Part shown: positions 32,403 through 57,316 of the stretch, piece by piece
Layout: the number at the start of each line of letters is the position of its first letter
Position numbering within the stretch: position 1 is the first letter of the stretch
Assembly (NCBI RefSeq): GCF_009931435.1
Contig: NZ_CP043414.1
Source of the DNA: Escherichia coli
GTDB taxonomy: Bacteria > Pseudomonadota > Gammaproteobacteria > Enterobacterales > Enterobacteriaceae
Direction: 5' to 3' (one strand)
DNA: 64,000 bases
Position numbers and translations under genes: made by a program
Notes under the pieces: model-generated
The model's database searches: none
The model's input: only the letters and a program-made list of their open reading frames with translations
What the model was told of the DNA's origin: nothing

Positions 32403-33878
32403 ATGTCCAGTCAATATTTACGTATTTTTCAACAGCCACGTTCAGCCATATTGCTGATTCTGGGTTTTGCTTCCGGGCTACCGCTCGCCCTGACATCCGG
32501 CACCTTACAGGCCTGGATGACGGTCGAGAATATCGATCTTAAAACCATTGGTTTCTTCTCTCTGGTAGGCCAGGCTTACGTTTTTAAATTCCTCTGGTCA
32601 CCGCTGATGGATCGCTACACGCCCCCATTTTTCGGGCGGCGGCGCGGTTGGTTGCTCGCCACACAAATCCTGTTATTAGTCGCCATTGCGGCGATGGGTT
32701 TTCTCGAACCAGGCACCCAGCTCCGCTGGATGGCGGCACTGGCGGTGGTGATCGCTTTTTGCTCTGCCTCCCAGGATATTGTCTTCGATGCGTGGAAAAC
32801 CGATGTGCTCCCGGCAGAAGAGCGTGGTGCGGGCGCGGCAATCAGCGTGCTGGGTTACCGTTTAGGGATGCTGGTTTCCGGCGGCTTAGCCCTGTGGCTG
32901 GCAGATAAATGGCTGGGCTGGCAGGGCATGTACTGGTTGATGGCGGCGCTGTTGATCCCCTGTATTATCGCGACGTTACTTGCACCAGAACCAACCGACA
33001 CCGTTCCTGTGCCCAAAACGCTGGAACAAGCGGTTGTTGCACCTCTGCGCGATTTCTTTGGTCGCAATAATGCCTGGCTTATTTTGCTTCTTATCGTGCT
33101 GTATAAGCTGGGCGACGCATTCGCCATGAGCCTGACAACCACGTTTTTGATTCGCGGCGTCGGGTTTGATGCAGGTGAAGTAGGCGTGGTTAACAAAACG
33201 CTTGGCTTACTGGCGACCATTGTTGGCGCATTGTACGGTGGGATTTTGATGCAGCGCCTGTCACTGTTCCGGGCGCTGCTGATTTTCGGTATTTTACAAG
33301 GTGCGTCTAACGCCGGTTACTGGCTGCTGTCGATTACTGATAAGCATCTCTACAGCATGGGCGCAGCCGTCTTTTTCGAAAACCTCTGTGGCGGGATGGG
33401 TACATCAGCCTTTGTCGCGCTGTTAATGACGCTGTGTAATAAGTCATTTTCCGCTACTCAATTTGCCCTGCTCTCAGCGCTTTCTGCTGTAGGGCGAGTT
33501 TATGTCGGCCCCGTGGCGGGTTGGTTTGTTGAAGCACACGGCTGGTCGACATTCTATCTGTTCTCCGTCGCCGCTGCCGTACCAGGGCTTTTTTTGCTGC
33601 TGGTTTGTCGCCAGACGCTTGAATATACACGAGTAAATGACAACTTTATCTCCCGTACCGAATATCCGGCAGGTTATGCCTTTGCCATGTGGACATTGGC
33701 GGCGGGCGTCAGCCTGTTGGCCGTGTGGTTACTGCTGTTGACGATGGACGCGCTGGATTTGACGCACTTCTCTTTCCTGCCTGCGCTGCTGGAAGTCGGG
33801 GTTTTAGTCGCCCTTTCTGGTGTCGTGCTTGGTGGTTTACTGGATTATCTGGCGCTACGAAAAACGCATCTGACGTAA
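32403..33878 (+). CDS. ampG: Muropeptide (anhydromuropeptide) MFS permease AmpG (491 aa)
   Basis: ORF MSSQYLRIFQQPRSAILLILGFASGLPLALTSGTLQAWMTVENIDLKTIGFFSL... Confidence 0.97.
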   Translation: MSSQYLRIFQQPRSAILLILGFASGLPLALTSGTLQAWMTVENIDLKTIGFFSLVGQAYVFKFLWSPLMDRYTPPFFGRRRGWLLATQILLLVAIAAMGFLEPGTQLRWMAALAVVIAFCSASQDIVFDAWKTDVLPAEERGAGAAISVLGYRLGMLVSGGLALWLADKWLGWQGMYWLMAALLIPCIIATLLAPEPTDTVPVPKTLEQAVVAPLRDFFGRNNAWLILLLIVLYKLGDAFAMSLTTTFLIRGVGFDAGEVGVVNKTLGLLATIVGALYGGILMQRLSLFRALLIFGILQGASNAGYWLLSITDKHLYSMGAAVFFENLCGGMGTSAFVALLMTLCNKSFSATQFALLSALSAVGRVYVGPVAGWFVEAHGWSTFYLFSVAAAVPGLFLLLVCRQTLEYTRVNDNFISRTEYPAGYAFAMWTLAAGVSLLAVWLLLLTMDALDLTHFSFLPALLEVGVLVALSGVVLGGLLDYLALRKTHLT

Positions 33879-33889
33879 TCTGTAAATAT

Positions 33890-33934
33890 TATTTAGCCGT
33901 AGTAATCACTCGCCGTAATTATTACGGCTAAATA
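33890..33934. repeat. Inverted repeat / hairpin downstream of ampG
   Basis: tatttagccgta ... tacggctaaata, 12-bp perfect arms around a 21-nt spacer; no clear T-run. Confidence 0.4.
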
Positions 33935-34337
33935 AACATCAGCATCGCTTATTAATATTTGTTCTTTTGTGCGGCTTAGCGTCTGGAAATTATTGACGCC
34001 ATTTATGAATTCTATTTTTCTTACACGATTCAGCTAATGAGTCTTTATTTTCTCACTACCCAGTTGTCACCTTAATGATAATTATTTGTTAAATAATTGT
34101 TTTATTTTGTATTGGTTATACCAATTGCCCGCCCAAACTCCTTCTGCACTCCCCTTTCGTTATAACGCCCTTTTGCAACAGCTTCTTAAAATCAACTTGA
34201 TATGTTTTGCAACATATGTGACCTAATAGCCAAATCCAAGTAACAGGAATTTAATCATGTTTACAGTAATGTAACCTTCCCGTAAAATGCCCACACACTT
34301 TAAACGCCACCAGATCCCGTGGAATTGAGGTCGTTAA

Positions 34338-35285
<948 letters not shown>

Positions 35286-38242: not shown

Positions 38243-39133
38243 ATGATGTTTAAGCAATACCTGCAAGTAACGAAACCAGGCATCATCTTTGGCAACCTGA
38301 TCTCGGTGATTGGGGGATTCCTGCTGGCCTCAAAGGGCAGCATTGATTATCCCCTGTTTATCTACACGCTGGTTGGGGTGTCACTGGTTGTGGCGTCGGG
38401 TTGTGTGTTTAACAACTACATCGACAGGGATATCGACAGAAAGATGGAAAGGACGAAGAATCGGGTGCTGGTTAAGGGCCTGATCTCTCCTGCTGTCTCG
38501 CTGGTGTACGCCACCTTGCTGGGTATTGCTGGCTTTATGCTGCTGTGGTTTGGCGCGAATCCGCTGGCCTGCTGGCTGGGGGTGATGGGCTTTGTGGTTT
38601 ATGTCGGCGTCTACAGCCTGTACATGAAACGCCACTCGGTCTACGGCACGTTGATTGGTTCGCTCTCTGGCGCTGCGCCGCCGGTGATCGGCTACTGTGC
38701 GGTAACCGGCGAGTTCGATAGCGGCGCAGCGATCCTGCTGGCTATCTTCAGCCTGTGGCAGATGCCTCACTCTTATGCCATCGCAATTTTCCGCTTTAAG
38801 GATTATCAGGCGGCAAACATTCCGGTACTGCCAGTGGTGAAAGGCATTTCGGTAGCGAAAAACCACATTACGCTGTATATCATCGCCTTTGCCGTTGCCA
38901 CGCTGATGCTCTCTCTTGGCGGTTACGCTGGGTATAAATATCTGGTGGTCGCCGCGGCGGTTAGCGTCTGGTGGTTAGGTATGGCGCTGCGTGGTTATAA
39001 AGTTGCTGATGATCGAATCTGGGCACGCAAGCTGTTCGGCTTCTCGATCATCGCCATCACTGCCCTCTCGGTAATGATGTCCGTTGATTTTATGGTGCCG
39101 GACTCGCATACGCTGCTGGCTGCTGTGTGGTAA
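38243..39133 (+). CDS. cyoE: Heme O synthase (protoheme IX farnesyltransferase) CyoE (296 aa)
   Basis: ORF 38198..39133 trimmed to [32 protein letters not shown]... Confidence 0.93.
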
Positions 39134-39145
39134 CACAACCTCTCT

Positions 39146-39176
39146 ATAAAAAAGGTGCTACGGCACCTTTTTTATT
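39146..39176 (+). terminator. Rho-independent terminator of the cyo operon
   Basis: aaaaaaggtgc-tacg-gcacc-ttttttatt directly after the cyoE stop. Confidence 0.75.
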
Positions 39177-39212
39177 GTCTGAGAACAGAGATACGGCTAA
39201 TAACCGTATCTC

Positions 39213-39241
39213 TTGACAGAGTGAGTATATGCACATAAATT
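39213..39241 (+). promoter_or_regulatory. Putative sigma70 promoter of the antitoxin-toxin operon
   Basis: TTGACA-N17-TAAATT about 75 nt upstream of the antitoxin ATG, immediately preceded by a 9-bp inverted repeat (gagatacgg-N7-ccgtatctc, 39188..39212). Confidence 0.4.
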
Positions 39242-39317
39242 AATCATTCGGTTGATAGCCGTATTATGCATGAGATCGACTCCCTACGATTTCATTCAGT
39301 TAATCAAAGAGGTCATA

Positions 39318-39629
39318 ATGCCTGGAAAAACAGTCGCTCTACCCGATATCGATAAAACGCTGAAAAATGCGCGGGTTGAACTCAAAACCAGTCCCGACGC
39401 CAAAAACAAACTTCGTGAAGCTGCGCAAGCCGTTGGGGTAGATTTAAGCGCTTTTATTTTGAGCGCAGCTATGGAACGCGCCGAAAGTGTGCTTGATAAC
39501 CAACGTCGCCGTGAGCTTTCGAATCAAAGCTGGGAACTGATGAACCAACTCATCGCTGAACCTGCTCAACCGACGCTCGCCCTCAAGGCGTTAATGAAAA
39601 GGAAAAACAGCGATGGTCGACAAGCATGA
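39318..39629 (+). CDS. Putative type II antitoxin, DUF1778 family (TacA/AtaR-like ribbon-helix-helix), 103 aa
   Basis: ATG 39318 preceded by RBS aaagagg; product MPGKTVALPDIDKTLKNARVELKTSPDAKNKLREAAQAVGVDLSAFILSAAMERAESVLDNQRRRELSNQSWELMNQLIAEPAQP... has the size and pattern of DUF1778 antitoxins; 17-nt overlap with the downstream GNAT gene. Confidence 0.75.
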   Translation: MPGKTVALPDIDKTLKNARVELKTSPDAKNKLREAAQAVGVDLSAFILSAAMERAESVLDNQRRRELSNQSWELMNQLIAEPAQPTLALKALMKRKNSDGRQA

Positions 39630-40155
39630 AGAGATTACTCTGCCCATAGTCCTCTCCTGTAATTATCAGTCTGATATTACTTATCCTGGGCAAAAACAGT
39701 TTGATTGCGGTAACCCTGTTATCGATAAATTTGTACGCGCATCGCTAAAGAAAAGTGTGCGTAATAGCGACTGTGCTGCTAAAGCACTTATTGACAGACA
39801 AAGTGGTGAACTGATTGGCATCTGTACTTTTACGGCATATTCGCTGGAAAAACAACGCGTTTCTGGCGTCCTTCAGGGTTCACAACCTTCAGAGATTGGT
39901 GTTGTCAGATTAGTCATGTTAGGGGTAGCGCGGAAATATCAAAAGCGGGGCTTTGGTCAGGACCTACTATGTGATTTTTTTGAACATGTAAAAATAATTC
40001 ACCGGGCATTACCAATTAAAGGGGTTTATCTTGATGCTGACCCTGCCGCCATTAACTTTTATACTCGTCTCGGCTTTGTTCAGCTTTCAGCGAGGCCCAA
40101 TGTTTTCGGTGCTGTACCGATGTTTTTAGCGATTCAGCATATTCTCGCGGCTTAG
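39613..40155 (+). CDS. Putative GNAT-fold acetyltransferase toxin (TacT/AtaT/ItaT-like), 180 aa
   Basis: MVDKHEEITLP...FDCG...RLVMLGVARKYQKRGFGQDLL...INFYTRLGF carries the GNAT acetyl-CoA motif (R/Q-x-x-G-x-G/A); start overlaps the antitoxin stop, typical of translationally coupled TA pairs. Confidence 0.75.
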   Translation: MVDKHEEITLPIVLSCNYQSDITYPGQKQFDCGNPVIDKFVRASLKKSVRNSDCAAKALIDRQSGELIGICTFTAYSLEKQRVSGVLQGSQPSEIGVVRLVMLGVARKYQKRGFGQDLLCDFFEHVKIIHRALPIKGVYLDADPAAINFYTRLGFVQLSARPNVFGAVPMFLAIQHILAA

Positions 40156-40210
40156 ATTATTATCGCCTCCGGCCATGGCAAGTTTTGCCTCAGCCGGGGA
40201 CTGAGCAGCG

Positions 40211-41146
40211 TTACCACTTTTGTTCAATTGCCCCCGCTTTCATCAGGTCCACATCCTTGCCTTTAATGGTTGCCGTTGCGGCAACCATTGTGGTCCTTAT
40301 TGCTGCACAAGATTTTCGTTCAAATTCCGGTTTATAAAGAATAAGCAACGAATTACTGGTAAATGAATCAAGCCGGTAATCTGTAAAGTTAATATCCAGT
40401 CGGTTTAAGCCGAAAGGTGCAAAGCCGACCGTTTGAATAGTTTCCTTACCTGACGGACTCTTGATGTTGTACGTAACACGAAGATTGGCCACTTCGCCTA
40501 ATTTATTGGTTTTGGCAAAGAGGCTATCCATGCAGGAAAAACCTTTATCTAAAAAATTATCCCGCATTCCAGAACGGGTAATCGTGATCACAGGTAACGT
40601 ATCGTCAACCGTTTTTCTGTCAATCATATCTTTTCGACAGGTGGCCATAAAGTCTTCCGGACCAGTATAAATGTGAACACCCTTATCAAGATATTCTTTC
40701 GCTTTACTACAATCCACCTCGACATACTGACCATTGGCGTACATCATGCCCAACCTGGACCATGCTAAATTCACACCGCGTTGCGTAGCCTGATTAAATA
40801 ACGCATACGCTTTGGCATAATCCACCCGCACCTGTTCACCTTCGTAGTAGATATCCCCCAGCGCTAACGGAGCTTCTTCATCACCTTGTTTAGCGGCTAA
40901 CTCGAACCATTTAATGGCTTCCTGAACGTTGGGTTTGGTATCGTAGCGGGGCTGATAATATTCCCAGCCTAACAGGCTTTGCGCGTCGACATCCCCCGAC
41001 TCAGCCATTTTATACAGTGTCCTTATCACATCGGGGGCAGGCTTTTCACTGTATATGCTGTCATACAATTCATGCGCTTTCTCGCTTGCCAGTGAACCTT
41101 GTGAGGCAATTAATAAAATAGCCAATAAACTCTTTTCATTTAACAT
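40211..41146 (-). CDS. Secreted Sel1-like repeat (SLR/TPR-like) protein with an unassigned C-terminal domain, 311 aa
   Basis: N-terminal Sec signal peptide (MLNEKSLLAILLIASQGSLA|SE); Sel1 repeats (LGWEYYQ..., LGDIYYEGEQVRVDYAKAYALFNQATQRG, LGMMYANGQYVEVDCSKAKEYLDKG); C-terminal 160 aa unrecognised; convergent with the TA operon. Confidence 0.75.
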   Translation of the reverse strand: MLNEKSLLAILLIASQGSLASEKAHELYDSIYSEKPAPDVIRTLYKMAESGDVDAQSLLGWEYYQPRYDTKPNVQEAIKWFELAAKQGDEEAPLALGDIYYEGEQVRVDYAKAYALFNQATQRGVNLAWSRLGMMYANGQYVEVDCSKAKEYLDKGVHIYTGPEDFMATCRKDMIDRKTVDDTLPVITITRSGMRDNFLDKGFSCMDSLFAKTNKLGEVANLRVTYNIKSPSGKETIQTVGFAPFGLNRLDINFTDYRLDSFTSNSLLILYKPEFERKSCAAIRTTMVAATATIKGKDVDLMKAGAIEQKW

Positions 41147-41562
41147 AAATAACCTTTATGCATCCATCACTATATTTTTCAATAAACCTAACCACCAAAC
41201 ATCCACTTCATGAATAAATACACAGCCATAACAACCTCAGGTAATAAGTAAACATTTAAGCTGAAGCAGAATAACCAGCACCTCCAACACCTCTATTTAT
41301 TGCGATAAAATAACACCATCCTTTAATAAAAAATCACACGCTCATCAACAAATCCGAAAATAATATCATTCGTGGCAGGATAAAATCAGGCGAGCTTTTC
41401 ATTTGTTATATTTAACGCACAAAGTATTAATGGCAAGAATACGAGGGAAGCGCATGCCTGACGTAAAAATCACGCTCTTATGTAATATTTACTCATTAAC
41501 ACTCTGTTTACCCAACATGCGCTCCGCACTACACTATGTGGGCAATTTTTTAAGAGGTGGTA

Positions 41563-42927
41563 ATGAACGATTATAAAATGACGCCAGGTGAGCGGCGCGC
41601 GACCTGGGGTTTAGGGACCGTATTTTCATTGCGCATGCTGGGCATGTTTATGGTACTGCCGGTTCTAACTACGTACGGTATGGCACTGCAAGGTGCCAGT
41701 GAAGCATTAATCGGTATTGCCATTGGTATTTATGGCCTGACTCAGGCCGTTTTTCAGATTCCGTTTGGCCTGCTCTCAGACCGTATTGGTCGCAAACCAT
41801 TAATTGTCGGCGGGCTGGCGGTGTTTGCTGCCGGTAGTGTTATCGCTGCGCTTTCCGACTCAATCTGGGGAATTATTCTGGGCCGGGCGTTACAAGGTTC
41901 TGGAGCGATTGCCGCTGCCGTTATGGCGCTACTTTCTGATCTCACGCGCGAACAAAACCGCACCAAAGCGATGGCGTTTATCGGCGTGAGTTTTGGCATT
42001 ACCTTCGCCATTGCGATGGTACTTGGCCCTATCATCACTCACAAACTTGGACTGCACGCGCTGTTCTGGATGATCGCTATTCTGGCAACGACCGGTATTG
42101 CGTTGACCATTTGGGTTGTGCCCAACAGCAGCACGCACGTACTTAATCGTGAGTCCGGAATGGTGAAAGGCAGTTTCAGCAAAGTGCTGGCAGAACCGCG
42201 ACTGCTGAAACTCAACTTCGGCATTATGTGTCTGCACATGCTGCTGATGTCGACGTTTGTTGCCCTGCCCGGACAGTTGGCTGATGCGGGGTTCCCGGCG
42301 GCTGAGCACTGGAAGGTCTATCTGGCGACGATGTTAATCGCCTTTGGCTCGGTTGTGCCTTTCATTATCTACGCGGAAGTTAAGCGCAAAATGAAGCAAG
42401 TCTTTGTCTTCTGCGTCGGGCTGATCGTGGTTGCGGAAATTGTGTTGTGGAACGCACAAACGCAGTTCTGGCAACTGGTGGTCGGCGTGCAGCTTTTCTT
42501 TGTGGCGTTTAATTTGATGGAAGCCCTCCTCCCCTCGCTTATCAGTAAAGAGTCGCCAGCCGGTTACAAAGGTACGGCGATGGGCGTTTACTCCACCAGC
42601 CAGTTTCTTGGCGTGGCCATTGGCGGTTCGCTGGGTGGCTGGATTGACGGCATGTTTGACGGTCAGGGCGTATTTCTCGCTGGCGCAATGCTGGCCGCTG
42701 TGTGGCTGGCTGTCGCCAGTACCATGAAAGAACCGCCGTATGTAAGCAGTTTGCGCATTGAAATCCCATCGGACATTGCCGCAAACGAGGCGTTAAAAGT
42801 GCGTTTGCTGGAAACTGCGGGTGTCAAAGAAGTGTTGATTGCAGAAGAAGAACATTCGGCTTACGTGAAAATCGACAGCAAAGTGACGAATCGCTTTGAA
42901 GTTGAACAGGCAATTCGTCAGGCATAA
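41563..42927 (+). CDS. yajR: MFS transporter YajR (454 aa)
   Basis: ORF 41557..42927 trimmed to ATG 41563 (MNDYKMTPGERRATWGLGTVFSLRMLGMFMVLPVLTTYG...); RBS aagagg. Confidence 0.93.
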   Translation: MNDYKMTPGERRATWGLGTVFSLRMLGMFMVLPVLTTYGMALQGASEALIGIAIGIYGLTQAVFQIPFGLLSDRIGRKPLIVGGLAVFAAGSVIAALSDSIWGIILGRALQGSGAIAAAVMALLSDLTREQNRTKAMAFIGVSFGITFAIAMVLGPIITHKLGLHALFWMIAILATTGIALTIWVVPNSSTHVLNRESGMVKGSFSKVLAEPRLLKLNFGIMCLHMLLMSTFVALPGQLADAGFPAAEHWKVYLATMLIAFGSVVPFIIYAEVKRKMKQVFVFCVGLIVVAEIVLWNAQTQFWQLVVGVQLFFVAFNLMEALLPSLISKESPAGYKGTAMGVYSTSQFLGVAIGGSLGGWIDGMFDGQGVFLAGAMLAAVWLAVASTMKEPPYVSSLRIEIPSDIAANEALKVRLLETAGVKEVLIAEEEHSAYVKIDSKVTNRFEVEQAIRQA

Positions 42928-42964
42928 AAAACGAGGCGAATTGCCTGTTGCGCTACGCTTTTCA

Positions 42965-43040
42965 GGCCTACAAAGTTCCTGAGTGACAAATCTTTGTAGG
43001 CCAAATCAGGCGTTCATGCCGCATCTGACATGAACAAAGC
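42965..43040. repeat. REP-like palindromic element between yajR and yajQ
   Basis: ggcctacaaag ... ctttgtaggcc, 11-bp inverted arms, followed by the REP-like motif gccgcatctgacatg. Confidence 0.5.
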
Positions 43041-43054
43041 GCAGGTTGTCGCGA

Positions 43055-43546
43055 TTAATCGCGGAAGTTTTTGAACTGGAACGGCTGACCCAGATCGCCA
43101 CCACGTACCATCGCCATGACAGCCTGCAAATCATCACGAGATTTGCCCGTCACACGGATCTCATCGCCCTGAATTTGCGCCTGCACTTTCAGTTTGCTGT
43201 CTTTGATCATCTTGACGATTTTCTTCTGGGTCGCGCTTTCAATGCCCTGTTTCAGTTTCGCTTCCACAAACCAGGTTTTACCGCTATGAACGATATTTTC
43301 CGGTACATCCAGCGAACTGCCTTCAATGCCGCGCTTCAGTAGCTTGGCACGCAGAATATCCAGCAACTGATTGACCTGGAAGTCGGACTCGCTCAACACT
43401 TTGATGGTTTTGCTGGCGTCGTTCAGCTCAAATGAGGCTTCAACGTTACGGAAGTCAAAACGGGACTCCACTTCGCGGCTCGCGTTATCGACCGCGTTTC
43501 GTGCTTCCTGAAGATCAACTTCAGAGACAATATCGAAAGATGGCAT
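43055..43546 (-). CDS. yajQ: Nucleotide-binding protein YajQ (UPF0234), 163 aa
   Basis: ORF 43055..43714 trimmed to ATG at 43546 ([35 protein letters not shown]...). Confidence 0.93.
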
Positions 43547-43623
43547 CTTTTCCTCTCCCTTCATTTTTGATGCGAAGCATAATACCTGCAAAGTTAAATA
43601 ACCGACAGTCCTGCACCAGGACG

Positions 43624-43671
43624 TATCCCTTAATTGTGCATAGTCGCAACAGCATGCACAATTAAGGGATA
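43624..43671. repeat. Perfect 18-bp inverted repeat with 12-nt spacer in the yajQ/panE divergent intergenic region
   Basis: tatcccttaattgtgcat-agtcgcaacagc-atgcacaattaagggata; the arms are exact reverse complements. Confidence 0.85.
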
Positions 43672-43713
43672 GCCTTATTGAACACCCGGAGTGGTTGCGG
43701 GTGAGGAGGAACA

Positions 43714-45178
<1,465 letters not shown>

Positions 45179-45180
45179 TG

Positions 45181-45220
45181 TCAGATGCGGCAAACGTCGC
45201 ATCTGACCAGATGCGACGTC
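45181..45220. repeat. REP-like palindrome between yajL and thiI
   Basis: tcagatgcg-gcaaac-gtcgcatctga followed by ccagatgcgacgtc. Confidence 0.5.
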
Positions 45221-45231
45221 ACAACCACAAA

Positions 45232-46680
45232 TTACGGACGATACACCTTCACATTGTTAAAGCCCTGCTCGCGCAGATAGAGCGCCTGCAGGCGGCTCAT
45301 CACCCCGCGCTCACACCACAACAGCCAGGTTTTGTTCTGGTCGAGATCGCCAAATTTGGTGCTCAGTTTATAGAACGGCAGAGAAACCACGTCGATACCT
45401 TCAACTCTCAGCGGCTTATCTTCTTGTTCATCAACAGAACGGATATCGAGGATCACGTCGTTCGGGCCGAAGCCGTTGACGGTTTCCACTTCCACCACTT
45501 CCTGCTCGGTCTGCTGAGCGATTTCGCGGATATCAACGTTATTCGCTTCCTCAACCACTTTATCGAGAATGCTGAAGTCGAACTTCTCTTCTTCCGCTTC
45601 AATCTTCGATTTAACCGCTTTCACCGTCGGGCTTTTGGAGATAACACCGCAGTATTCCGGCATGGTGCGGGCAAAATCTTCGGTGCCAATCTGGCGAGCC
45701 AGGTTGATGATGTGCTCTTTGTCGTAAGAGATCAGCGGACGCAGGATCAGCGTATCGGAGACGTTATCAATCAGGCGCAGGTTGGTTAGCGTCTGGCTGG
45801 ACACCTGTCCCAGCGCTTCGCCGGTGACGAGCGCCTGTACGCCGTAACGTTCAGCCACTTTAGACGCGGCACGCACCATCATACGTTTGAGAATTACGCC
45901 CATCTGACCGTCGTCGATTTTCTCGAGAATTTCACCGACGACCGGCTCAAAGTTAATGGCGACAAAACGCACGCGGTGGGAGCTACCAAAACGGTTCCAC
46001 AGATAATGCGCCACCTGACGAACACCAATTTCATGCGCCGCGCCGCCGAGATTAAAGAAGCAGTAATGCACGCGGCAGCCGCGACGCATCAACATATAAC
46101 TGGAAACACCGGAGTCGAAACCACCGGAAATAAGCGACAGCACATCTTCCTGGGTGCCGATTGGGAATCCGCCAATACCTTCGTAACGACCTTTAATCAG
46201 CAGGAGACGATCGTCTTCAACTTCCAGATGGACAGTCACATCCGGATTGGTCAGCTTCACGCGCGCGGATTCAATATGCTGATTTAAACCGCCGCCGACG
46301 TAACGTTCCACATCAATCGAGCTAAACTCATGTTTACCACGGCGCTTCACGCGTACGCAGAAGGTTTTACCTTCCAGCTGATCGCGATACTGAACCAACG
46401 CTTTCTCAAAAATATCGTGCATGTCGGTAAACGGCACGTCTTCGACTTCGAGAATATGGTGGATACCCGGAATACGGGTCAGGGCGTCGCGAATAGCCAG
46501 ACGCTGGCTTTCATCTTTTGCGCGAACTTCGATGTTATCCCAGTGGCGGACGACAGCGAGTGTCTCATCATAGTGCTTTAAAACGTTACGAATGTTCCCG
46601 GTAAGGATTTTTATAAAGCGCAAGCGCACAGATTGGCTTTTGATGGTGATTTCCGGGAACAATTTAATGATAAACTTCAT
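45232..46680 (-). CDS. thiI: tRNA 4-thiouridine synthase / thiazole biosynthesis sulfur carrier ThiI (482 aa)
   Basis: [38 protein letters not shown]...; C-terminal rhodanese domain. Confidence 0.97.
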
Positions 46681-46885
46681 GGCGGCAATGGTTCGTTGGC
46701 AAGTCTTAAGCGACTTGTATAGGGAAAAATACAGCAGCCCACACCTGCGGCTGCATCCAGGCGCGGAAGTATACCACTAACATCGCTTTGCTGCGCACAT
46801 CACCTTACCATTGCGCGTTATTTGCTATTTGCCCTGAGTCCGTTACCATGACGGGGCGAAAAATATTGAGAGTCAGACATTCATT

Positions 46886-47128
46886 ATGCCGAAGAAAAAT
46901 GAGGCGCCCGCCAGCTTTGAAAAGGCGCTGAGCGAGCTGGAACAGATTGTAACCCGTCTGGAAAGTGGCGACCTGCCGCTGGAAGAGGCGCTGAACGAGT
47001 TCGAACGTGGCGTGCAGCTGGCACGTCAGGGGCAGGCCAAATTACAACAAGCCGAACAGCGCGTACAAATTCTGCTGTCTGACAATGAAGACGCCTCTTT
47101 AACTCCTTTTACACCGGACAATGAGTAA
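46886..47128 (+). CDS. xseB: Exodeoxyribonuclease VII small subunit XseB (80 aa)
   Basis: [67 protein letters not shown]... Confidence 0.97.
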
Positions 47129-48027
47129 TGGACTTTCCGCAGCAACTCGAAGCCTGCGTTAAGCAGGCCAACCAGGCGCTGAGCCGTTTTATTGCCCCAC
47201 TGCCCTTTCAGAACACTCCCGTGGTCGAAACCATGCAGTATGGCGCATTATTAGGTGGTAAGCGCCTGCGACCGTTCCTGGTTTATGCCACCGGCCATAT
47301 GTTCGGCGTTAGCACAAACACGCTGGACGCACCCGCTGCCGCCGTGGAGTGTATCCACGCGTATTCATTAATTCATGATGATTTACCGGCAATGGATGAT
47401 GACGATCTGCGTCGCGGTTTGCCGACCTGCCATGTGAAGTTTGGCGAAGCAAACGCGATTCTCGCTGGCGACGCTTTACAAACGCTGGCGTTCTCGATTT
47501 TAAGTGATGCCGATATGCCGGAAGTGTCGGATCGCGACAGAATTTCGATGATTTCTGAACTGGCGAGCGCCAGCGGTATTGGCGGAATGTGCGGTGGTCA
47601 GGCATTAGATTTAGATGCGGAAGGCAAACACGTACCTCTGGACGCACTCGAGCGTATTCATCGCCATAAAACCGGCGCATTAATTCGCGCCGCCGTTCGT
47701 CTTGGTGCATTAAGCGCCGGAGATAAAGGACGTCGTGCTCTGCCAATTCTCGACAAGTACGCAGAGAGCATCGGCCTTGCCTTCCAGGTTCAGGATGACA
47801 TCCTGGATGTGGTGGGAGATACTGCAACGTTGGGTAAACGCCAGGGTGCCGACCAGCAACTTGGTAAAAGTACCTACCCTGCACTTCTGGGTCTTGAGCA
47901 AGCCCGGAAGAAAGCCCAGGATCTGATCGACGATGCCCGCCAGTCGCTAAAACAACTGGCTGAACAGTCACTCGATACCTCGGCACTGGAAGCGCTAGCG
48001 GACTACATCATCCAGCGTAATAAATAA
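47128..48027 (+). CDS. ispA: Farnesyl diphosphate synthase IspA (299 aa)
   Basis: [34 protein letters not shown]... with the two aspartate-rich motifs (LIHDDLPAMDDDDLRRG; FQVQDDILD); TAATG overlap with xseB. Confidence 0.97.
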   Translation: MDFPQQLEACVKQANQALSRFIAPLPFQNTPVVETMQYGALLGGKRLRPFLVYATGHMFGVSTNTLDAPAAAVECIHAYSLIHDDLPAMDDDDLRRGLPTCHVKFGEANAILAGDALQTLAFSILSDADMPEVSDRDRISMISELASASGIGGMCGGQALDLDAEGKHVPLDALERIHRHKTGALIRAAVRLGALSAGDKGRRALPILDKYAESIGLAFQVQDDILDVVGDTATLGKRQGADQQLGKSTYPALLGLEQARKKAQDLIDDARQSLKQLAEQSLDTSALEALADYIIQRNK

Positions 48028-48051
48028 ACAATAAGTATTAATAGGCCCCTG

Positions 48052-49914
48052 ATGAGTTTTGATATTGCCAAATACCCGACCCTGGCACTGGTCGACTCCA
48101 CCCAGGAGTTACGACTGTTGCCAAAAGAGAGTTTACCGAAACTCTGCGACGAACTGCGCCGCTATTTACTCGACAGCGTGAGCCGTTCCAGCGGGCACTT
48201 CGCCTCCGGGCTGGGCACGGTCGAGCTGACCGTAGCGCTGCACTACGTCTATAACACCCCGTTTGACCAATTGATTTGGGATGTGGGGCATCAGGCTTAT
48301 CCGCATAAAATTTTGACCGGACGCCGCGACAAAATAGGCACCATCCGTCAAAAAGGCGGCCTGCACCCGTTCCCGTGGCGCGGCGAAAGTGAATATGACG
48401 TGTTAAGCGTCGGGCATTCATCAACCTCTATCAGTGCCGGAATTGGTATTGCGGTTGCTGCCGAGAAAGAAGGCAAAAATCGCCGCACCGTCTGTGTTAT
48501 AGGCGATGGCGCGATTACTGCTGGCATGGCGTTTGAAGCGATGAATCACGCGGGCGACATCCGCCCGGACATGCTGGTTATTCTCAACGACAACGAAATG
48601 TCGATTTCCGAAAATGTTGGCGCGCTCAACAACCATCTGGCGCAGCTGCTTTCCGGCAAGCTTTACTCTTCACTGCGCGAGGGCGGGAAAAAAGTATTCT
48701 CCGGCGTTCCGCCCATTAAAGAGCTGCTCAAACGTACCGAAGAACATATTAAAGGCATGGTAGTACCAGGCACGCTGTTTGAAGAGCTGGGCTTTAACTA
48801 CATCGGCCCGGTTGACGGTCACGATGTGCTGGGGCTTATCACCACGCTTAAGAACATGCGCGACCTGAAAGGCCCGCAGTTCCTGCATATCATGACCAAA
48901 AAAGGTCGTGGTTACGAACCGGCAGAAAAAGATCCAATCACCTTCCACGCCGTGCCTAAATTTGACCCCTCCAGCGGTTGCCTGCCGAAAAGCAGCGGCG
49001 GCCTGCCAAGCTATTCAAAAATTTTTGGCGACTGGTTGTGCGAAACCGCAGCAAAAGACAACAAGCTGATGGCGATTACCCCGGCGATGCGCGAAGGTTC
49101 AGGCATGGTCGAGTTTTCACGTAAATTCCCGGATCGCTACTTCGACGTGGCAATCGCCGAGCAACACGCAGTGACCTTTGCTGCGGGTCTGGCGATTGGT
49201 GGCTACAAACCGATCGTGGCAATTTATTCCACTTTCCTGCAACGTGCCTATGATCAGGTGCTGCATGACGTGGCGATTCAAAAGCTCCCGGTCCTGTTCG
49301 CCATCGACCGCGCGGGCATTGTTGGTGCTGACGGTCAAACCCACCAGGGCGCTTTTGATCTCTCATACCTGCGCTGCATTCCGGAAATGGTCATTATGAC
49401 CCCGAGCGATGAAAACGAATGTCGCCAGATGCTCTATACCGGCTATCACTATAACGATGGCCCGTCAGCGGTGCGCTATCCGCGCGGCAACGCCGTTGGC
49501 GTTGAACTGACGCCACTGGAAAAACTGCCAATTGGCAAAGGCATTGTGAAGCGTCGTGGCGAGAAACTGGCGATCCTCAACTTTGGTACGCTGATGCCGG
49601 AAGCAGCGAAAGTCGCAGAATCGCTGAACGCTACGCTGGTCGATATGCGTTTTGTGAAGCCGCTTGATGAAGCGTTAATTCTGGAAATGGCCGCCAGCCA
49701 CGAGGCGCTGATCACCATTGAAGAAAACGCCATTATGGGCGGCGCAGGCAGCGGCGTGAACGAAGTGCTGATGGCCCATCGTAAACCAGTACCCGTGCTG
49801 AATATTGGCCTGCCGGACTTCTTTATTCCACAAGGAACGCAGGAAGAAATGCGCGCTGAACTCGGCCTCGATGCCGCCGGTATGGAAGCCAAAATCAAAA
49901 CCTGGCTGGCATAA
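48052..49914 (+). CDS. dxs: 1-deoxy-D-xylulose-5-phosphate synthase Dxs (620 aa)
   Basis: [58 protein letters not shown]... Confidence 0.98.
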
Positions 49915-49921
49915 TCCCTAC

Positions 49922-50078
49922 TCCACTCCTGCTATGCTTAAGAAATTATTCATAGACTCTAAATAATTCGAGTTGCAGGAAGGCGGCAAACGAGTGAAGC
50001 CCCAGGAGCTTACATAAGTAAGTGACTGGGGTGAACGAATGCAGCCGCAGCACATGCAACTTGAAGTATGACGAGTAT
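49922..50078. repeat. ERIC / IRU element between dxs and yajO
   Basis: Contains gtgaagccccaggagcttacat-aagtaagtgactggggtgaacg, matching the ERIC1R and ERIC2 consensus cores; boundaries approximate. Confidence 0.6.
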
Positions 50079-50093
50079 GGCAGGAGTGGCAGC

Positions 50094-51068
50094 ATGCAAT
50101 ACAACCCCTTAGGAAAAACCGACCTTCGCATTTCCCGACTTTGCCTCGGCTGTATGACCTTTGGTGAGCCGGATCGCGGTAATCACGCATGGACACTGCC
50201 CGAAGAGAGCAGCCGTCCCATCATTAAACGCGCGCTGGAAGGCGGCATAAATTTCTTTGATACCGCCAATAGTTATTCTGACGGCAGCAGCGAAGAGATC
50301 GTCGGTCGTGCACTGCGGGACTTTGCCCGTCGTGAAGACGTGGTCGTTGCAACTAAAGTGTTCCATCACGTTGGTGATTTGCCGGAAGGATTATCCCGTG
50401 CGCAAATTTTGCGCTCTATTGACGACAGCTTGCGACGTCTCGGCATGGATTATGTCGATATCCTGCAAATTCATCGCTGGGATTACAACACGCCGATCGA
50501 AGACACGCTGGAAGCCCTGAACGATGTGGTAAAATCCGGGAAAGCGCGTTATATCGGCGCGTCATCCATGCACGCCTCGCAGTTTGCTCAGGCGCTGGAA
50601 CTGCAAAAACAGCACGGCTGGGCGCAGTTTGTCAGTATGCAGGATCACTACAATCTGATTTATCGCGAAGAAGAACGAGAGATGCTGCCGCTGTGTTATC
50701 AGGAAGGCGTGGCGGTGATTCCGTGGAGTCCGCTGGCGCGGGGACGTCTGACGCGTCCGTGGGGAGAAACCACCGCGCGGCTGGTGTCGGATGAAGTGGG
50801 GAAAAATCTCTACCAAGAAAGCGATGAAAATGACGCGCAGATCGCAGAACGGTTAACAGGCGTCAGTGAAGAACTGGGGGCAACGCGAGCACAAGTCGCG
50901 CTGGCATGGTTGTTGAGCAAACCTGGCATTGCCGCACCAATTATCGGTACATCGCGGGAAGAACAACTTGATGAATTGCTGAACGCGGTGGATATCACCT
51001 TGAAGCCGGAACAGATTGCTGAACTGGAAACGCCGTATAAACCGCATCCGGTCGTAGGATTTAAATAG
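50094..51068 (+). CDS. yajO: Aldo-keto reductase family oxidoreductase YajO (324 aa)
   Basis: ORF 50022..51068 trimmed to ATG 50094 (MQYNPLGKTDLRISRLCLGCMTFGEPDRGNHAWTLPEE...). Confidence 0.93.
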   Translation: MQYNPLGKTDLRISRLCLGCMTFGEPDRGNHAWTLPEESSRPIIKRALEGGINFFDTANSYSDGSSEEIVGRALRDFARREDVVVATKVFHHVGDLPEGLSRAQILRSIDDSLRRLGMDYVDILQIHRWDYNTPIEDTLEALNDVVKSGKARYIGASSMHASQFAQALELQKQHGWAQFVSMQDHYNLIYREEEREMLPLCYQEGVAVIPWSPLARGRLTRPWGETTARLVSDEVGKNLYQESDENDAQIAERLTGVSEELGATRAQVALAWLLSKPGIAAPIIGTSREEQLDELLNAVDITLKPEQIAELETPYKPHPVVGFK

Positions 51069-51076
51069 GAATCCAG

Positions 51077-51109
51077 GCCTGATGAGACGTGACAAGCGTC
51101 ACATCAGGC
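51077..51109. repeat. REP-like palindrome between yajO and pgpA
   Basis: gcctgatgagacgtgacaagcgtcacatcaggc imperfect palindrome. Confidence 0.45.
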
Positions 51110-51121
51110 ATCGGTGCACAG

Positions 51122-51640
51122 CTACGACAGAATACCCAGCGGCCAGTGATGACCAATAAAGTACAGGATGCCTGCGGAAATCACCCCGGCGACGATATCA
51201 TCTATCATGATCCCCATGCCGCCATGCACATTGCGATCAAACCAGCGGATCGGCCACGGTTTCCACATATCCAGAATACGGAAAATCACAAACCCGGCGG
51301 CGACCCACTGCCAGTCATTGGTCGGCAATGCCATGAGCGTGATCCACATGCCGATAAATTCGTCCCAGACAATGCTGCCGTGATCATGCACGCCCATATC
51401 TTTTGCGGTCTGATGACAAAGATAGACGCCAATACAGATCCCCAGCATGACTACCAGTGAATAGAGCTGCCAGGGCAAAAAGGTCATCAGATACCAGAAC
51501 GGAATCGCCGCCAGCGACCCCATCGTGCCTGGAACAATTGGGCTTAATCCACTACCAAATCCAACAGCAAGCAGATGCCACGGATTACTCAGCTTAAGGC
51601 GACTTTTCGCGACATCTTTATGGCGTGGCAAAATGGTCAT
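51122..51640 (-). CDS. pgpA: Phosphatidylglycerophosphatase A PgpA (172 aa)
   Basis: ORF 51122..51676 trimmed to ATG at 51640 ([16 protein letters not shown]...); membrane protein. Confidence 0.93.
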
Positions 51641-52595
51641 ATCCTTTCCAGTCAAATGTGACAGGTTCGCCGTCACGAATAAAACAAAGCCCTTCGATAT
51701 CGGCAGTCATTTGCCCGATACAGGTAAACGGTACGCCCAGATGTCCGAGAGCCACATCCAGCGCGCCACGGTTAAGCTCTGGCACAGTGAAACACAACTC
51801 GTAATCTTCACCGCCAGAGAGCGCCCAGCGCAGCGCCTGTTCCGGCTCAACATGGCGAGAAAGCGCATCAGAAAACGGCAGCAATGCCAGGTCAATACGT
51901 GCGCCGCAGTCGCTGGCTTTCACGATATGCCCGAGATCAGAAATCAGACCGTCAGAGAGATCGATAGCTGAATTTGCCAGATCACGCAAAGCCTGTCCCT
52001 GTAAAATACGCGGCGACGGACGGAGATGACGTTTGATCAAGTAGTCCGCATCTTTAGCATCGGCAACCTGCAAACGGTTTTGCAATATCGCCAGCCCGGC
52101 GGCGCTATCGCCCGGTGTACCGGTCACATAGATCCAGTCACCCGGTTTCGCCCCAGAGCGCGTTAAGGCTCGTCCCATCGGAACAAAGCCGTGGATACCC
52201 AACGTCATTGATAATGGCCCACGCGTGGTATCGCCGCCAATAAGTTGCATATCGTAATAATTGAGAAGATCAAACAAACTGTCGCTGAAGGACTCAAGCC
52301 ACGCTTCATCGACGTCCGGTAAGGTTAATGCCAGCGTTAGCCAGGCCGGATCGGCCCCCATCGCTGCCAGATCGCTTAGGTTCACCGCCAGTGCTTTATA
52401 CGCCAGATCCGCAGGATCGATATCAGGGAGGAAATGGTTGCCCGCCACCAGCGTATCAGTGCTGATCGCCAGGGTCTGTTTCTCGGGGATATTGAGAAGT
52501 GCGCAATCGTCGCCAATGCCCAGTTCGACATCAAGACGAGAACTTCTTACACGGTCAAAATAACGGGCAATCAGGGAGAACTCGCCACATGCCAT
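51618..52595 (-). CDS. thiL: Thiamine-monophosphate kinase ThiL (325 aa)
   Basis: [38 protein letters not shown]...; 23-nt overlap with the pgpA start. Confidence 0.95.
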
Positions 52596-52672
52596 ACGTT
52601 ATGCCTCAGCAGGTAAAAAAGAAAAGGCCGGCGATCGCGGAACGGTCTTCCGTGAATCTACCGGCCTGGATA

Positions 52673-53092
52673 TCACTTTTTGTTAGGGCGAATCACAGGT
52701 GCTGCTTTATCGAGTACGCCGTTGACGAACTTATGGCTGTCTTCTGCGCCGAACGATTTTGCCAGTTCGATCGCTTCGTTAATGGCCACTTTGTATGGCA
52801 CATCGCTACGTTTAGACAGCTCGTACAGCGCAATGCGCAGTACAGCTTTTTCTACCTGGCCCAGTTCTTCCAGCAGGCGGGACAGGTATGGCTTCATCAG
52901 TCCGTCGAGGTATGCGGTGTTAGTCGCCACCCCGGCCAGCAGCTCACGGAAGTACAGGACGTCAACATCTTTTACATCCTGTTCAGCCAGGAACTGGTAT
53001 TCAACATCAGCGATGTCGTTCTGGGACAACTGCCAGGAGTAGAGCGCCTGGACGGCACACTCACGAGCGCGGCGACGAGCAGCAGGTTTCAC
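52673..53092 (-). CDS. nusB: Transcription antitermination factor NusB (139 aa)
   Basis: [47 protein letters not shown]... Confidence 0.97.
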
Positions 53093-53111
53093 GGATTTCC
53101 CCTTACTAATT

Positions 53112-53582
53112 TCAGGCCTTGATGGCTTTCAATACATTAATCATTTCAAGCGCGGTCAGTGCAGCTTCTGCACCTTTGTTGCCAGCTTTGGTGCCAGCAC
53201 GTTCGATCGCTTGTTCAATGCTTTCAGTGGTCAGAACACCAAAAGCAACCGGAATTTCGCTGTCCTGGGCAACATGCGCCAGGCCGTTGCTTGCACCACC
53301 AGCGACATATTCAAAGTGGGCAGTGCCACCACGAATAACCGTACCCAGCGCAATCACCGCGTCATATTTACCGGTTTTAGCCAGTGCACCCGCCGCCAGC
53401 GGCAGCTCATAGGCACCAGGCACCCAAACAACGGTAATGTTTTCATCTTTTACCTGACCGATACGTTTCAGTGCGTCAATTGCACCTTCCAGCAGGCTGT
53501 CATTGATAAAGTTGTTGAAACGCGCGATGGTGATGGCGACGCGAGCGTCCGGGGTAGCAACGTTAGCTTCAATAATGTTCAT
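53112..53582 (-). CDS. ribE: 6,7-dimethyl-8-ribityllumazine synthase RibE/RibH (156 aa)
   Basis: ORF 53112..53678 trimmed to ATG at 53582 ([40 protein letters not shown]...). Confidence 0.95.
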
Positions 53583-53670
53583 TTTCTTCCTTCGGGTTCG
53601 AGTATGGCCCCGCAGGGGGGCGGATTTTAGCATAATATTTCGTGCGCTGCTTCCCTTTCGAGCCGGGAGA

Positions 53671-54774
53671 TCATGCACCCACTAAATGCAGGCAAACATC
53701 CGGGCCTACATGACGTATCTCTTTGAATTTAAATTGGGGGGCGTCGGCTAATTTCTCAAGTCCTGGCAGCGTGCATAATCCACGGGCGTCGTTGCCTAAT
53801 AGTTTAGGTGCGATATAGACAATCAGCTCATCAACTAAACCAGCCTGTAGCAATGCGCCAGCGAGCGTTGGCCCAGCTTCCACCCAGATGCTATTAATCT
53901 GCTGTTTACCCAGTTGCATCATCAATACAACCAGATCCAGATGACCTTTATGCTCTGGAATCAGCAAGGTTCGCACCGTTTCCGGCCACTCGCGAGAATC
54001 TTCCTGCGTACGCGCGAACCAGGTTTCGCCAGACTGCTGCACAATACGGTGTTCCGGCGTCACGCGATTTTGGCTATCAATCACAATACGTACTGGCTGG
54101 CGGAGATTTTGTTGCGGATAGAGCGCCTGAGTTTGTTCATCCAGTTCAGACCAACGCACCGTTAAGGCTGGATCGTCCGCCATGACTGTTGCGCTGCTGG
54201 TTAAAATGGCATGACTTTGCGCACGCAGACGTTGTACATCGCGTCGCGCCTGAGGAGACGTGATCCACTGGCTCTCACCGCTCGCCATCGCCGTGCGACC
54301 ATCAAGCGACGCGCCAAGTTTTAACTGGATATAAGGAAAGCCGGTGCGCATGCGCTTGAGAAAGCCTTTATTCAATTGCTCGGCTTCACTCATCATCAGG
54401 CCGTGGCTGACGTCAATGCCAGCCTGTTGCAAACGATAAAGTCCACGCCCAGCGACCTGCGGGTTAGGATCCTGCATCGCGGCAACCACGCGCGTGACAC
54501 CCGCAGCAATCAACGCATCGCAACATGGCGGCGTACGACCATGATGGCTACAGGGTTCGAGTGTGACATACGCCGTTGCGCCTTTGGCTTTTTCGCCGGC
54601 CATGCGCAACGCGTGTACCTCGGCATGCGGTTCACCCGCTCGTTGATGGTAACCTTCACCGACAATTTCGCCATCTTTGACAATGACGCACCCGACATTC
54701 GGGTTGGGATGCGTGGTAAAACGTCCTCGTTGCGCCAGCTTTAGCGCCCGCGCCATGTAATACTCGTCCTGCAC
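53671..54774 (-). CDS. ribD: Bifunctional riboflavin biosynthesis deaminase/reductase RibD (367 aa)
   Basis: [59 protein letters not shown] (CMP/dCMP deaminase zinc motif). Confidence 0.97.
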
Positions 54775-54777
54775 GGC

Positions 54778-55263
<486 letters not shown>

Positions 55264-55377
55264 TTACCCTGAACTGACGATACAACAAAGGCGCAACGCT
55301 TTTGAGATAAAGGATCGATGCTTTCGCTGCTTTTACCCTCTACCATTAGGCTAATTGCGACGAGAAAGGGACGACCT

Positions 55378-55917
55378 ATGAATACTAACGTTTTTCGACT
55401 GCTCCTGCTGGGAAGCCTGTTCAGCCTTAGCGCCTGTGTGCAGCAAAGCGAAGTGCGACAGATGAAACACAGCGTCAGCACACTGAACCAGGAGATGACG
55501 CAACTCAATAAAGAAACGGTCAAAATCACTCAGCAAAACAGGCTGAATGCAAAATCCAGCAGTGGGGTTTACCTTCTGCCTGGAGCGAAAACACCAGCAA
55601 GACTGGAAAGCCAGATCGGTACTTTACGTATGTCGCTGGTGAATATTACGCCTGATACAGATGGCACCACCCTGACGCTACGTATTCAGGGCGAGTCGAA
55701 TGATCCCTTGCCCGCATTCAGCGGAACTGTTGAATATGGACAAATTCAGGGAACAATAGACAACTTTCAGGAAATCAATGTGCAGAATCAATTGATTAAC
55801 GCCCCTGCCAGCGTCCTCGCCCCCAGCGATGTTGATATTCCGTTACAGTTAAAGGGTATTTCTGTGGATCAGTTAGGCTTTGTACGTATCCACGACATTC
55901 AACCTGTTATGCAGTAA
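55378..55917 (+). CDS. yajI: Lipoprotein YajI (179 aa)
   Basis: ORF 55318..55917 trimmed to ATG 55378 (MNTNVFRLLLLGSLFSLSACVQQSEV, lipobox LSAC). Confidence 0.9.
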   Translation: MNTNVFRLLLLGSLFSLSACVQQSEVRQMKHSVSTLNQEMTQLNKETVKITQQNRLNAKSSSGVYLLPGAKTPARLESQIGTLRMSLVNITPDTDGTTLTLRIQGESNDPLPAFSGTVEYGQIQGTIDNFQEINVQNQLINAPASVLAPSDVDIPLQLKGISVDQLGFVRIHDIQPVMQ

Positions 55918-56214
55918 ACGTATCGCGGGGCGTTTTGTGCGTCCCGCAACATCTTTCCCCGTCATTTTGTTACTCTGCTTACATCACCCAGATTGATAGT
56001 AAAAGTTTGCAACAAGGGTGAAAGTCAGTACAATCCCCGCCCGAATGTGTGTAAACGTGAACGCAATCGATTACGTAAATGATAGAACTGTGAAACGAAA
56101 CATATTTTTGTGAGCAATGATTTTTATAATAGGCTCCTCTGTATACGAAATATTTAGAAACGCAATTTGCGCCTTTTTCACTCCCGCAAGGGATTTTCAA
56201 ACAGTGGCATACAT

Positions 56215-57099: not shown

Positions 57100-57106
57100 T
57101 GAATGA

Positions 57107-57134: not shown

Positions 57135-57310
<176 letters not shown>

Positions 57311-57316
57311 TTTTTA

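Follow-up and report, generated by a model that had tools for sequence, protein, structure and literature searches.

We analysed a 64,000-nucleotide stretch of Escherichia coli DNA (contig NZ_CP043414.1, assembly GCF_009931435.1; hereafter the window), in which some 2.3 kb absent from K-12 MG1655 lie between cyoE and yajR. This block holds the toxin-antitoxin locus itaRT and a convergent gene for a protein with Sel1 repeats and a signal peptide. We consider it probable that, at the cyoE/yajR site, itaRT and its independently transcribed Sel1 neighbour make up one allele, the occupied one, of an old two-state polymorphism, and that the block was not recently inserted. The toxin-antitoxin pair is no discovery, as it has been published, structurally solved and found in BL21(DE3).

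The gene order, taken from the open reading frame (ORF) map and from the RefSeq annotation of a 99.4%-identical genome, is cyoE, a 103-aa gene (+), a 180-aa gene (+), a 311-aa gene (-) and yajR. From the cyoE stop (39133) to the yajR ATG (41563) there are 2429 bp, compared to 148 bp in K-12. The whole window was compared by megablast with K-12 423,500-487,000. The two are collinear from acrA to malZ at ~97% identity, in three blocks: window 1-39173, 41484-57272 and 57311-64000, with identities of 97.8%, 96.1% and 96.7%. The sole large indel is window 39174-41483, for which the K-12 counterpart measures ~28 bp. On the left side, K-12 homology ends at 39176, directly past the T-run of the cyoE terminator. 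On the right side it returns weakly (~70% identity) from ~41456 and clearly from 41484. An initial annotation, made from the letters of the window, had placed an extra ~2.4 kb absent from K-12 at 39177-41562, and the alignment does break there. Its start was exact; its end takes in ~80-105 bp of the yajR promoter/5' region, which K-12 has in a diverged form.

Within E. coli, 5426 complete genomes were searched with a 3-kb query spanning the block. The query was fully covered in 1365, and the remainder match the flanks only. Queried separately, itaRT was matched by 1368 genomes and the Sel1 part by 1369, at one place per genome, and wherever a match was listed or inspected the block lies between cyoE and yajR. 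A probe made from the empty junction of K-12 aligns without a break in 4053 genomes (identity of 96.6% or higher). The site is a clean two-allele polymorphism, with ~25% of genomes occupied and ~75% empty. That cyoE and yajR nearly adjoin in K-12, as the initial annotation had stated, is correct and extends to ~75% of complete E. coli genomes. The toxin-antitoxin pair is not an unknown module: it is ItaR/ItaT, which is known from biochemical and structural work and which BL21(DE3) has at this site.

The flanks of the 3-kb query reach only ~92% identity to other E. coli, and an origin of the window outside E. coli was considered for that reason. It was rejected, as the wider window is ~97% identical to K-12 and the low figure comes from local divergence in cyoE-3' and yajR. 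The 3' half of cyoE and most of yajR (window 38650-39176 and 41563-43200) are unusually diverged, with 93-96% identity to both K-12 and ECOR29, a strain with the common occupied allele. Synonymous divergence (dS) in these stretches is 0.12 and 0.23, against 0.013 in cyoD. The divergent haplotype reaches past the indel into the flanking genes. In the spacer between the Sel1 gene and yajR (41148-41543), identity to the common E. coli allele drops to 62-73%, and no Rfam match was found within 41147-41562.

In terms of age, homologs of the Sel1 protein pointed to the same site in other taxa, whose contents are given here in the order yajR to cyoE. E. albertii (locus L004) has a Sel1 gene (311 aa) followed by a gene for a protein of 325 aa with a signal peptide. 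Escherichia sp. MOD1-EC7003 (L010) has a Sel1 gene (313 aa), other ORFs and an M20-peptidase-like ORF, the latter read from the sequence without a domain search. In a metagenome-assembled genome of Pseudocitrobacter (L011), with no yajR within the stretch read, a long Sel1 gene and a second one (308 aa) are followed by itaT (89% amino acid identity) and itaR (86%). A Pseudocitrobacter-like metagenome locus (L006) has two Sel1 genes (478 and 308 aa), an itaT remnant of 79 codons and itaR. The enterobacterium L008 has hok and two Sel1 genes (481 and 497 aa). Finally, several rare serovars of Salmonella enterica (L025) have two Sel1 genes (496 and 484 aa), a 326-aa protein, a 116-aa fragment of the Sel1 C-terminal domain and another Sel1 gene (496 aa). 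A Sel1-family gene is also found at the site in locus L023.

The most economical reading of these loci is that a Sel1-family gene or array would be a long-term resident of the cyoE/yajR site and that the K-12 state would be derived. The slot beside the cyoE terminator appears to carry variable cargo by lineage (itaRT, the 325-aa secreted protein or the M20-like gene), with hok at the yajR end in one lineage. Remnants of hok, of the 325-aa gene and of the M20-like gene were sought inside the islet of the window, and none were found.

The Salmonella array spans 6 kb (L025 5001-11031) and occurs in serovars Dortmund, Ceyco, Kotte, Portland and others, as well as in subsp. salamae; it contains three Sel1/beta-sandwich paralogs and a stand-alone 116-aa C-terminal domain. 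Its 326-aa protein (L025 8001-8981) is 66% identical to the 325-aa protein of E. albertii (L004 6048-7025), and its 90%-identity cluster includes Pseudocitrobacter proteins. Pfam and NCBIfam gave no match for the 325-aa protein. In L008, an intact ORF for a Hok-family type I toxin (MKERKAIVVALIVICITAVMAVLVTRKDLCEVRIRTQQTEVALFTTCESVK, 2204-2359) lies between yajR and the two Sel1 genes. In L006 (6984-7544), itaR is intact beside the truncated itaT, making it an orphan antitoxin.

The left junction, composed of the terminator, ATTG(T/C)CTG and the candidate operator, is alike in Escherichia and Pseudocitrobacter. Divergence between the window and the Pseudocitrobacter-type loci was estimated by the Nei-Gojobori method, with dS of 0.55-0.61 for itaR and 1.2-2.6 for itaT, and 0.56-1.5 for the flanking cyoD, cyoE, yajR and yajQ. 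Because their dS resembles that of the flanking core genes, itaR and itaT appear to be as old as their neighbours. At the other end of the block, all occupied loci, be they from Escherichia, Salmonella or the Pseudocitrobacter-type group, keep the ~95 bp that precede the yajR ATG (window 41456-41562; compare L001 3162-3300, minus strand). Here the empty allele of K-12 is the outlier, with a distinctive sequence upstream of yajR: CTAAAAAATCCGCATGTTTACCCCATTCGTTTGCC.

As for composition, the islet has 43.2% GC compared to 51.4% in the remaining window (z = -3.55 when set beside every other stretch of 2307 bp). GC at third codon positions (GC3) is 0.37-0.45 in the islet genes and 0.59-0.69 in the flanking genes. 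The islet can be told apart from the core on both counts, and its non-coding end is still more AT-rich (Table 1), in line with what the initial annotation had noted. Two other stretches of the window, 4300-6000 and 33600-34800, have 39-43% GC per kb and are equally or more AT-rich than the islet; K-12 has aligned counterparts of both, near tomB/hha-acrB and upstream of cyoA, which means that low GC is by itself no marker of strain-specific DNA here. Given its 43% GC and low GC3, the islet was presumably foreign DNA at some point, but not recently.

Signs of mobility are otherwise lacking. There are no tRNA genes at the islet, no integrase or transposase ORFs in its ORF map, and no target-site duplication or flanking direct repeats at its boundaries, only weak AT-rich chance matches elsewhere; the same absences had been reported before these searches. 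Searches of plasmid and phage records returned no genuine plasmid or phage copies. Three PLSDB "plasmid" matches (CP061270.1, NZ_OL790696.1 and CP099174.1) are 1.2-4.8 Mb long and evidently represent whole or partial chromosomes. Two "phage" matches (OR845150.1 and OR844664.1) are short unannotated fragments of 2-6.5 kb with chromosomal itaRT DNA. Among the marks of a mobile island, atypical composition is present, and mobility genes, attachment sites or repeats, and copies elsewhere are not.

The initial annotation had taken the block for an acquired islet. In its recent form, this explanation holds that foreign DNA was inserted past the cyo terminator in some E. coli, with K-12 keeping the ancestral empty site. 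The low GC and GC3 fit it, and so does absence from 4053 of the 5426 genomes. Moreover, when the occupied ECOR29 and the empty K-12 are compared, the flanking coding sequences of cyoE and yajR are 99.5-100% identical up to the junctions. We nonetheless find a recent insertion quite improbable. It would have to have left no mobility gene, tRNA, target-site duplication or mobile copy, and it does not account for the junction and gene order shared with Pseudocitrobacter at core-like dS. Nor does it account for Sel1 orthologs and paralogs at the site in E. albertii, cryptic Escherichia, Salmonella and other enterobacteria, or for a yajR upstream motif kept in occupied loci across genera with K-12 as the outlier. 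An old polymorphism fits these observations better.

The features of the locus are listed in Table 1. Outside it, the only other break in collinearity with K-12 is a ~38-bp replacement at window 57272-57311, in the yajD-tsx intergenic region (K-12 ~430,956).

Table 1. Features of the cyoE-yajR region (window coordinates)
Feature	Position	Strand	Remarks
Segment absent from K-12	39177..41483	n/a	2.3 kb, with ~25 bp in its place in K-12; right edge fuzzy, ~41455-41483; occupied allele of the two-state cyoE/yajR polymorphism
Intrinsic terminator of cyoE (cyoABCDE), hairpin and T-run	39146..39175	+	Perfect 13-nt inverted repeat; left anchor of the variable segment
itaRT promoter and palindromes	39187..39264	+	TTGACA-17-TAAATT at 39213-39241
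Palindrome 1, ATACGGCTAATAACCGTAT	39191-39209		Inverted repeat of the form ATACGG-N7-CCGTAT
Palindrome 2, ATTCGGTTGATAGCCGTAT	39246-39264		Inverted repeat of the form ATACGG-N7-CCGTAT
itaR, antitoxin, 103 aa	39318..39629	+	Ribbon-helix-helix N-terminus and TacA/DUF1778 domain
itaT, GNAT toxin, 180 aa	39613..40155	+	Aminoacyl-tRNA alpha-amine acetyltransferase; Pfam GNAT domains
GC-rich hairpin	40167..40199		Within the 55 bp that separate itaT from the convergent Sel1 gene; -24.3 kcal/mol, z = -2.26
Gene for Sel1-repeat protein, predicted to be exported, 311 aa	40211..41146	-	Convergent with itaT
IrmA-like C-terminal beta-sandwich, aa 186-311	40214-40591	-	Predicted structure
Three Sel1 repeats, aa 54-155	40682-40987	-	Pfam PF08238; followed by a linker helix
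Signal peptide of the Sel1 protein, aa 1-21	41084-41146	-	MLNEKSLLAILLIASQGSLA before SE; n-, h- and c-regions of a Sec signal, read from the sequence by eye
Divergent intergenic region, Sel1 gene to yajR	41147..41562		416 bp, 35.8% GC; Sel1-proximal part hypervariable between alleles; last ~95 bp are the conserved yajR promoter/5' region

The ORF map and Pfam bear out the gene calls made at the outset, an overlapping DUF1778 (TacA)/GNAT pair and a convergent Sel1 gene with a signal peptide. The reading frames of the pair overlap by 17 nt (39613-39629), with the antitoxin gene first. ItaR matches TacA1 in Pfam (PF08681, E 1.3e-17) and a NikA-like ribbon-helix-helix entry, and in the PDB it matches KacA (3.5e-11) and AtaR-like chains. 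It is 97% identical to the ECOR29/BL21 protein WP_001297137.1, with three substitutions compared to the common allele. ItaT is identical to the E. coli ItaT of PDB entry 7BYY at 175 of 180 positions (E 1e-115). One of the five differences, G115D, is carried by the crystallised chain, the window protein having G115; this change lowers ItaT toxicity (Zhang et al. 2020, PMC7367177). The other four (R131, T151, R161 and V164 in the window) are natural substitutions compared to the published protein. By sequence, the catalytic Y150 and the acetyl-CoA motif QKRGFG are intact.

The pair was described from E. coli HS (locus EcHS_A0501), and a virtually identical one is present in BL21(DE3) as ECD_00377-00378 (Wilcox et al. 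2018, PMC6125619). Because BL21(DE3) has exactly the order cyoE-DUF1778-GNAT-TPR-yajR, that is cyoE-itaR-itaT-TPR-yajR, the pair of the window is the published ItaR/ItaT locus itself and not just a relative. Toxicity, neutralisation, promoter autorepression by the complex and acetylation of Ile-tRNA(Ile) have been demonstrated, and cloned by itself ItaRT suffices as a toxin-antitoxin pair (PMC6125619). The substrates were later widened to Val- and Met-tRNA (PMC7367177). With proteins ~98% identical to the published ones, the pair of the window can be expected to share these activities. By this analogy, ItaT would transfer an acetyl group from acetyl-CoA to the alpha-amine of charged Ile-tRNA, and also of Val- and Met-tRNA, which would block translation. 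ItaR would bind and neutralise ItaT, and the complex would repress its own promoter.

This repression may act through two conserved palindromes of the form ATACGG-N7-CCGTAT around the TTGACA/TAAATT promoter, which scores 10/12 in a promoter scan. The palindromes bracket the promoter, and in a footprint of the window, ECOR29 and two Pseudocitrobacter-type loci their half-sites ACGG/CCGT, the -35 element and the ribosome-binding site are invariant, and the intervening sequence varies. They are probable operators for ItaR or ItaR-ItaT, to judge from this conservation. The cyoE terminator hairpin is preserved in Pseudocitrobacter by compensatory changes, and ATTG(T/C)CTG follows it in both genera. 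An Rfam match to STnc50 at 39142-39209 (-) overlaps the terminator and the first palindrome; with 23.5 bits, below the gathering score of 55, and E 0.73, it is most likely due to chance. The hairpin between itaT and the Sel1 gene has a T-run on neither strand.

The convergent gene would encode a Sec-exported Sel1 solenoid fused to an IrmA-like, disulfide-stapled beta-sandwich. An AlphaFold model built with an 18-sequence family alignment (mean predicted local distance difference test score, pLDDT, 85.5) shows a helical solenoid followed by a beta-sandwich, with low confidence for residues 1-20. The tandem Sel1 repeats (PF08238) and the alpha/alpha solenoid of the model place the protein among the Sel1-like repeat proteins. 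Its sequence matches in the PDB are Sel1 proteins, with c5321/EsiB as the best. Four cysteines are invariant: C146, C170, C205 and C280. For the C-terminal domain, neither the PDB chains (by sequence, E <= 10) nor NCBIfam gave a match. Its family is very small: of 1.84 billion representatives, 34 match at E <= 1e-3. In a Foldseek search of AFDB50, every match to the domain was a Sel1 fusion or a fragment, all from Enterobacterales but for one Achromobacter entry. Our literature search returned no papers on the Sel1 gene or on the cyoE/yajR context. The model and the sequence features make a periplasmic or secreted protein-binding factor, facing the host or the environment, the most likely role.

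In terms of evolution, the ratio of non-synonymous to synonymous divergence (dN/dS) of the Sel1 gene is 0.20-0.38, compared to 0-0.04 for the flanking genes. Positive selection was considered and rejected, with no domain or 30-codon window showing a clear ratio of non-synonymous to synonymous differences per site (pN/pS) above 1. The gene is under purifying but much relaxed constraint, together with recombination, and not under diversifying selection. Compared to the common E. coli allele, its protein is 84.6% identical (dS 0.41), and itaRT meanwhile is 97-100% identical. Codons 53-270 (window 40337-40990) are near-identical to E. albertii (L004 5001-5936; pS ~0.05), and codons 1-52 have pS of 0.4-0.55, with dS of 0.26-0.28 in the flanking core genes. 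The Sel1 gene appears to be a mosaic, which implies inter-species recombination inside the gene; such genes would have been exchanged between Escherichia species. An exact record of the window protein exists, and strains M863 and TW15838, which we take to be cryptic Escherichia clade I, fall in its 90% cluster. At 95% identity or higher, the allele is found in only 18 of the 5426 "E. coli" genomes. The window probably comes from a clade I-type strain, in keeping with its ~97% identity to K-12.

Several points weigh against this account of an old occupied allele and of its Sel1 protein. The composition of the islet (43% GC, low GC3) is what a foreign origin predicts, so that an acquisition once occurred. 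The argument on the ancestral state uses a handful of loci and is not a tree-based reconstruction, and the shared synteny might also stem from recombination in the conserved flanks that carried the block as a unit from one genus to another. The empty allele, for its part, is not a simple recent deletion of the common (ECOR29-type) occupied allele, because its ~95 bp upstream of yajR are anomalously divergent; import of the allele, or remodelling of its yajR promoter, may account for this. As for the protein, its localisation, disulfides and any ligand are predicted from sequence and modelled structure. Pfam IrmA (PF18673) does not match it at E <= 10. A profile of the C-terminal domain gave a probability of 0.6% against the IrmA sequence and, profile against profile with hhalign, 4% (E 0.01), neither significant. 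The non-significant hhalign alignment puts both disulfide cysteines of mature IrmA (Cys21-Cys80) on the invariant C205 and C280. The modelled domain thus looks IrmA-like in fold, and we do not assign it to the IrmA family.

The initial annotation had also suggested that the three genes could form a joint defence or effector-immunity unit. In such a single module the exported Sel1 protein would work with ItaRT, in anti-phage defence or in effector-immunity. The strict linkage in E. coli (1368 and 1369 genomes) would suit it, and so would the fact that unrelated toxin-antitoxin types adjoin Sel1 genes, itaRT in Escherichia and Pseudocitrobacter and hok in L008. The linkage is, however, explained by the shared 2.3-kb indel, and the genes are convergent with separate promoters. 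Four lineages have Sel1 genes but no itaRT (E. albertii, MOD1-EC7003, Salmonella and L008), and ItaRT is self-sufficient when cloned alone (PMC6125619). ItaT is cytoplasmic, and the Sel1 protein has a signal peptide. PADLOC-DB 2.0 had no match for ItaR or ItaT, and for the Sel1 protein one trivial match to PtuA (E 3e-4), with zero stretches passing, which amounts to nothing meaningful. A joint function is very unlikely on this evidence.

The two toxin-antitoxin types could also have a selfish role, stabilising a dispensable locus against deletion. This addiction concerns maintenance only and is compatible with an old two-allele polymorphism. In different genera, two unrelated types adjoin Sel1 genes at this one site, and the occupied allele was retained across genera. 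Against this, the block is missing, through loss or otherwise, from three quarters of E. coli, and the module itself decays, as the truncated toxin beside an intact antitoxin in L006 illustrates. In E. albertii, MOD1-EC7003 and Salmonella L025, Sel1 genes are retained, and the stretch read showed no toxin-antitoxin module. We regard addiction as doubtful.

A wider reading would join these elements. The Sel1 proteins might be a small, as yet undescribed Enterobacterales family of exported Sel1 + IrmA-like binding proteins, at cyoE/yajR since before Escherichia, Salmonella and Pseudocitrobacter split, with paralog arrays in Salmonella, fast-evolving and swapped between species. Their ligands might, as for IrmA or EsiB, be immune molecules of the host (cytokines or immunoglobulins, for example), with itaRT and hok as stabilisers of the locus. 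This picture is improbable, and we put it forward tentatively.

Under the preferred reading, of an old occupied allele, itaRT is an AT-rich chromosomal toxin-antitoxin pair that is old and syntenic with Pseudocitrobacter, which counters the default view of such pairs as recent arrivals. The candidate ItaR operators are backed by a cross-genus footprint. The remaining interest lies in the Sel1/IrmA-like family and its chromosomal address: an uncharacterised, presumably exported family with a conserved place in enterobacterial chromosomes, and a candidate for host-factor binding.

Compared with known systems, the pair of the window shares with ItaR/ItaT of HS and BL21(DE3) the overlapping operon with the antitoxin first, the BL21(DE3) chromosomal position, and residues Y150 and G115. 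The publication of that pair (PMC6125619) does not mention cyoE, yajR or Sel1, and the genomic context, the Sel1 neighbour and the cross-genus synteny are not described there. TacAT of Salmonella, AtaRT of E. coli O157:H7 and KacAT of Klebsiella have the same fold and architecture. Their sequence similarity is only distant (PDB matches of ItaT to KacT, AtaT and TacT chains have E of 1e-6 to 1e-3), and their published aminoacyl-tRNA specificity differs, since ItaT prefers Ile, Val and Met.

As for the Sel1 protein, c5321/EsiB (PDB 4BWR), HcpC of Helicobacter and LpnE of Legionella are also Sel1-repeat proteins with an alpha-solenoid and are exported; in our case the solenoid is modelled and export is predicted. 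They differ in having no C-terminal beta-sandwich, and the window protein has just three repeats. IrmA (c1275) of uropathogenic E. coli is a secreted, fibronectin type III (FNIII)-like protein with one disulfide, reported to bind interleukins (IL) IL-2, IL-4 and IL-10 (PMC4807369; PDB 5EK5; Pfam PF18673). IrmA stands alone and follows agn43, whereas the domain of the window is fused to Sel1 repeats and lies in another genomic context.

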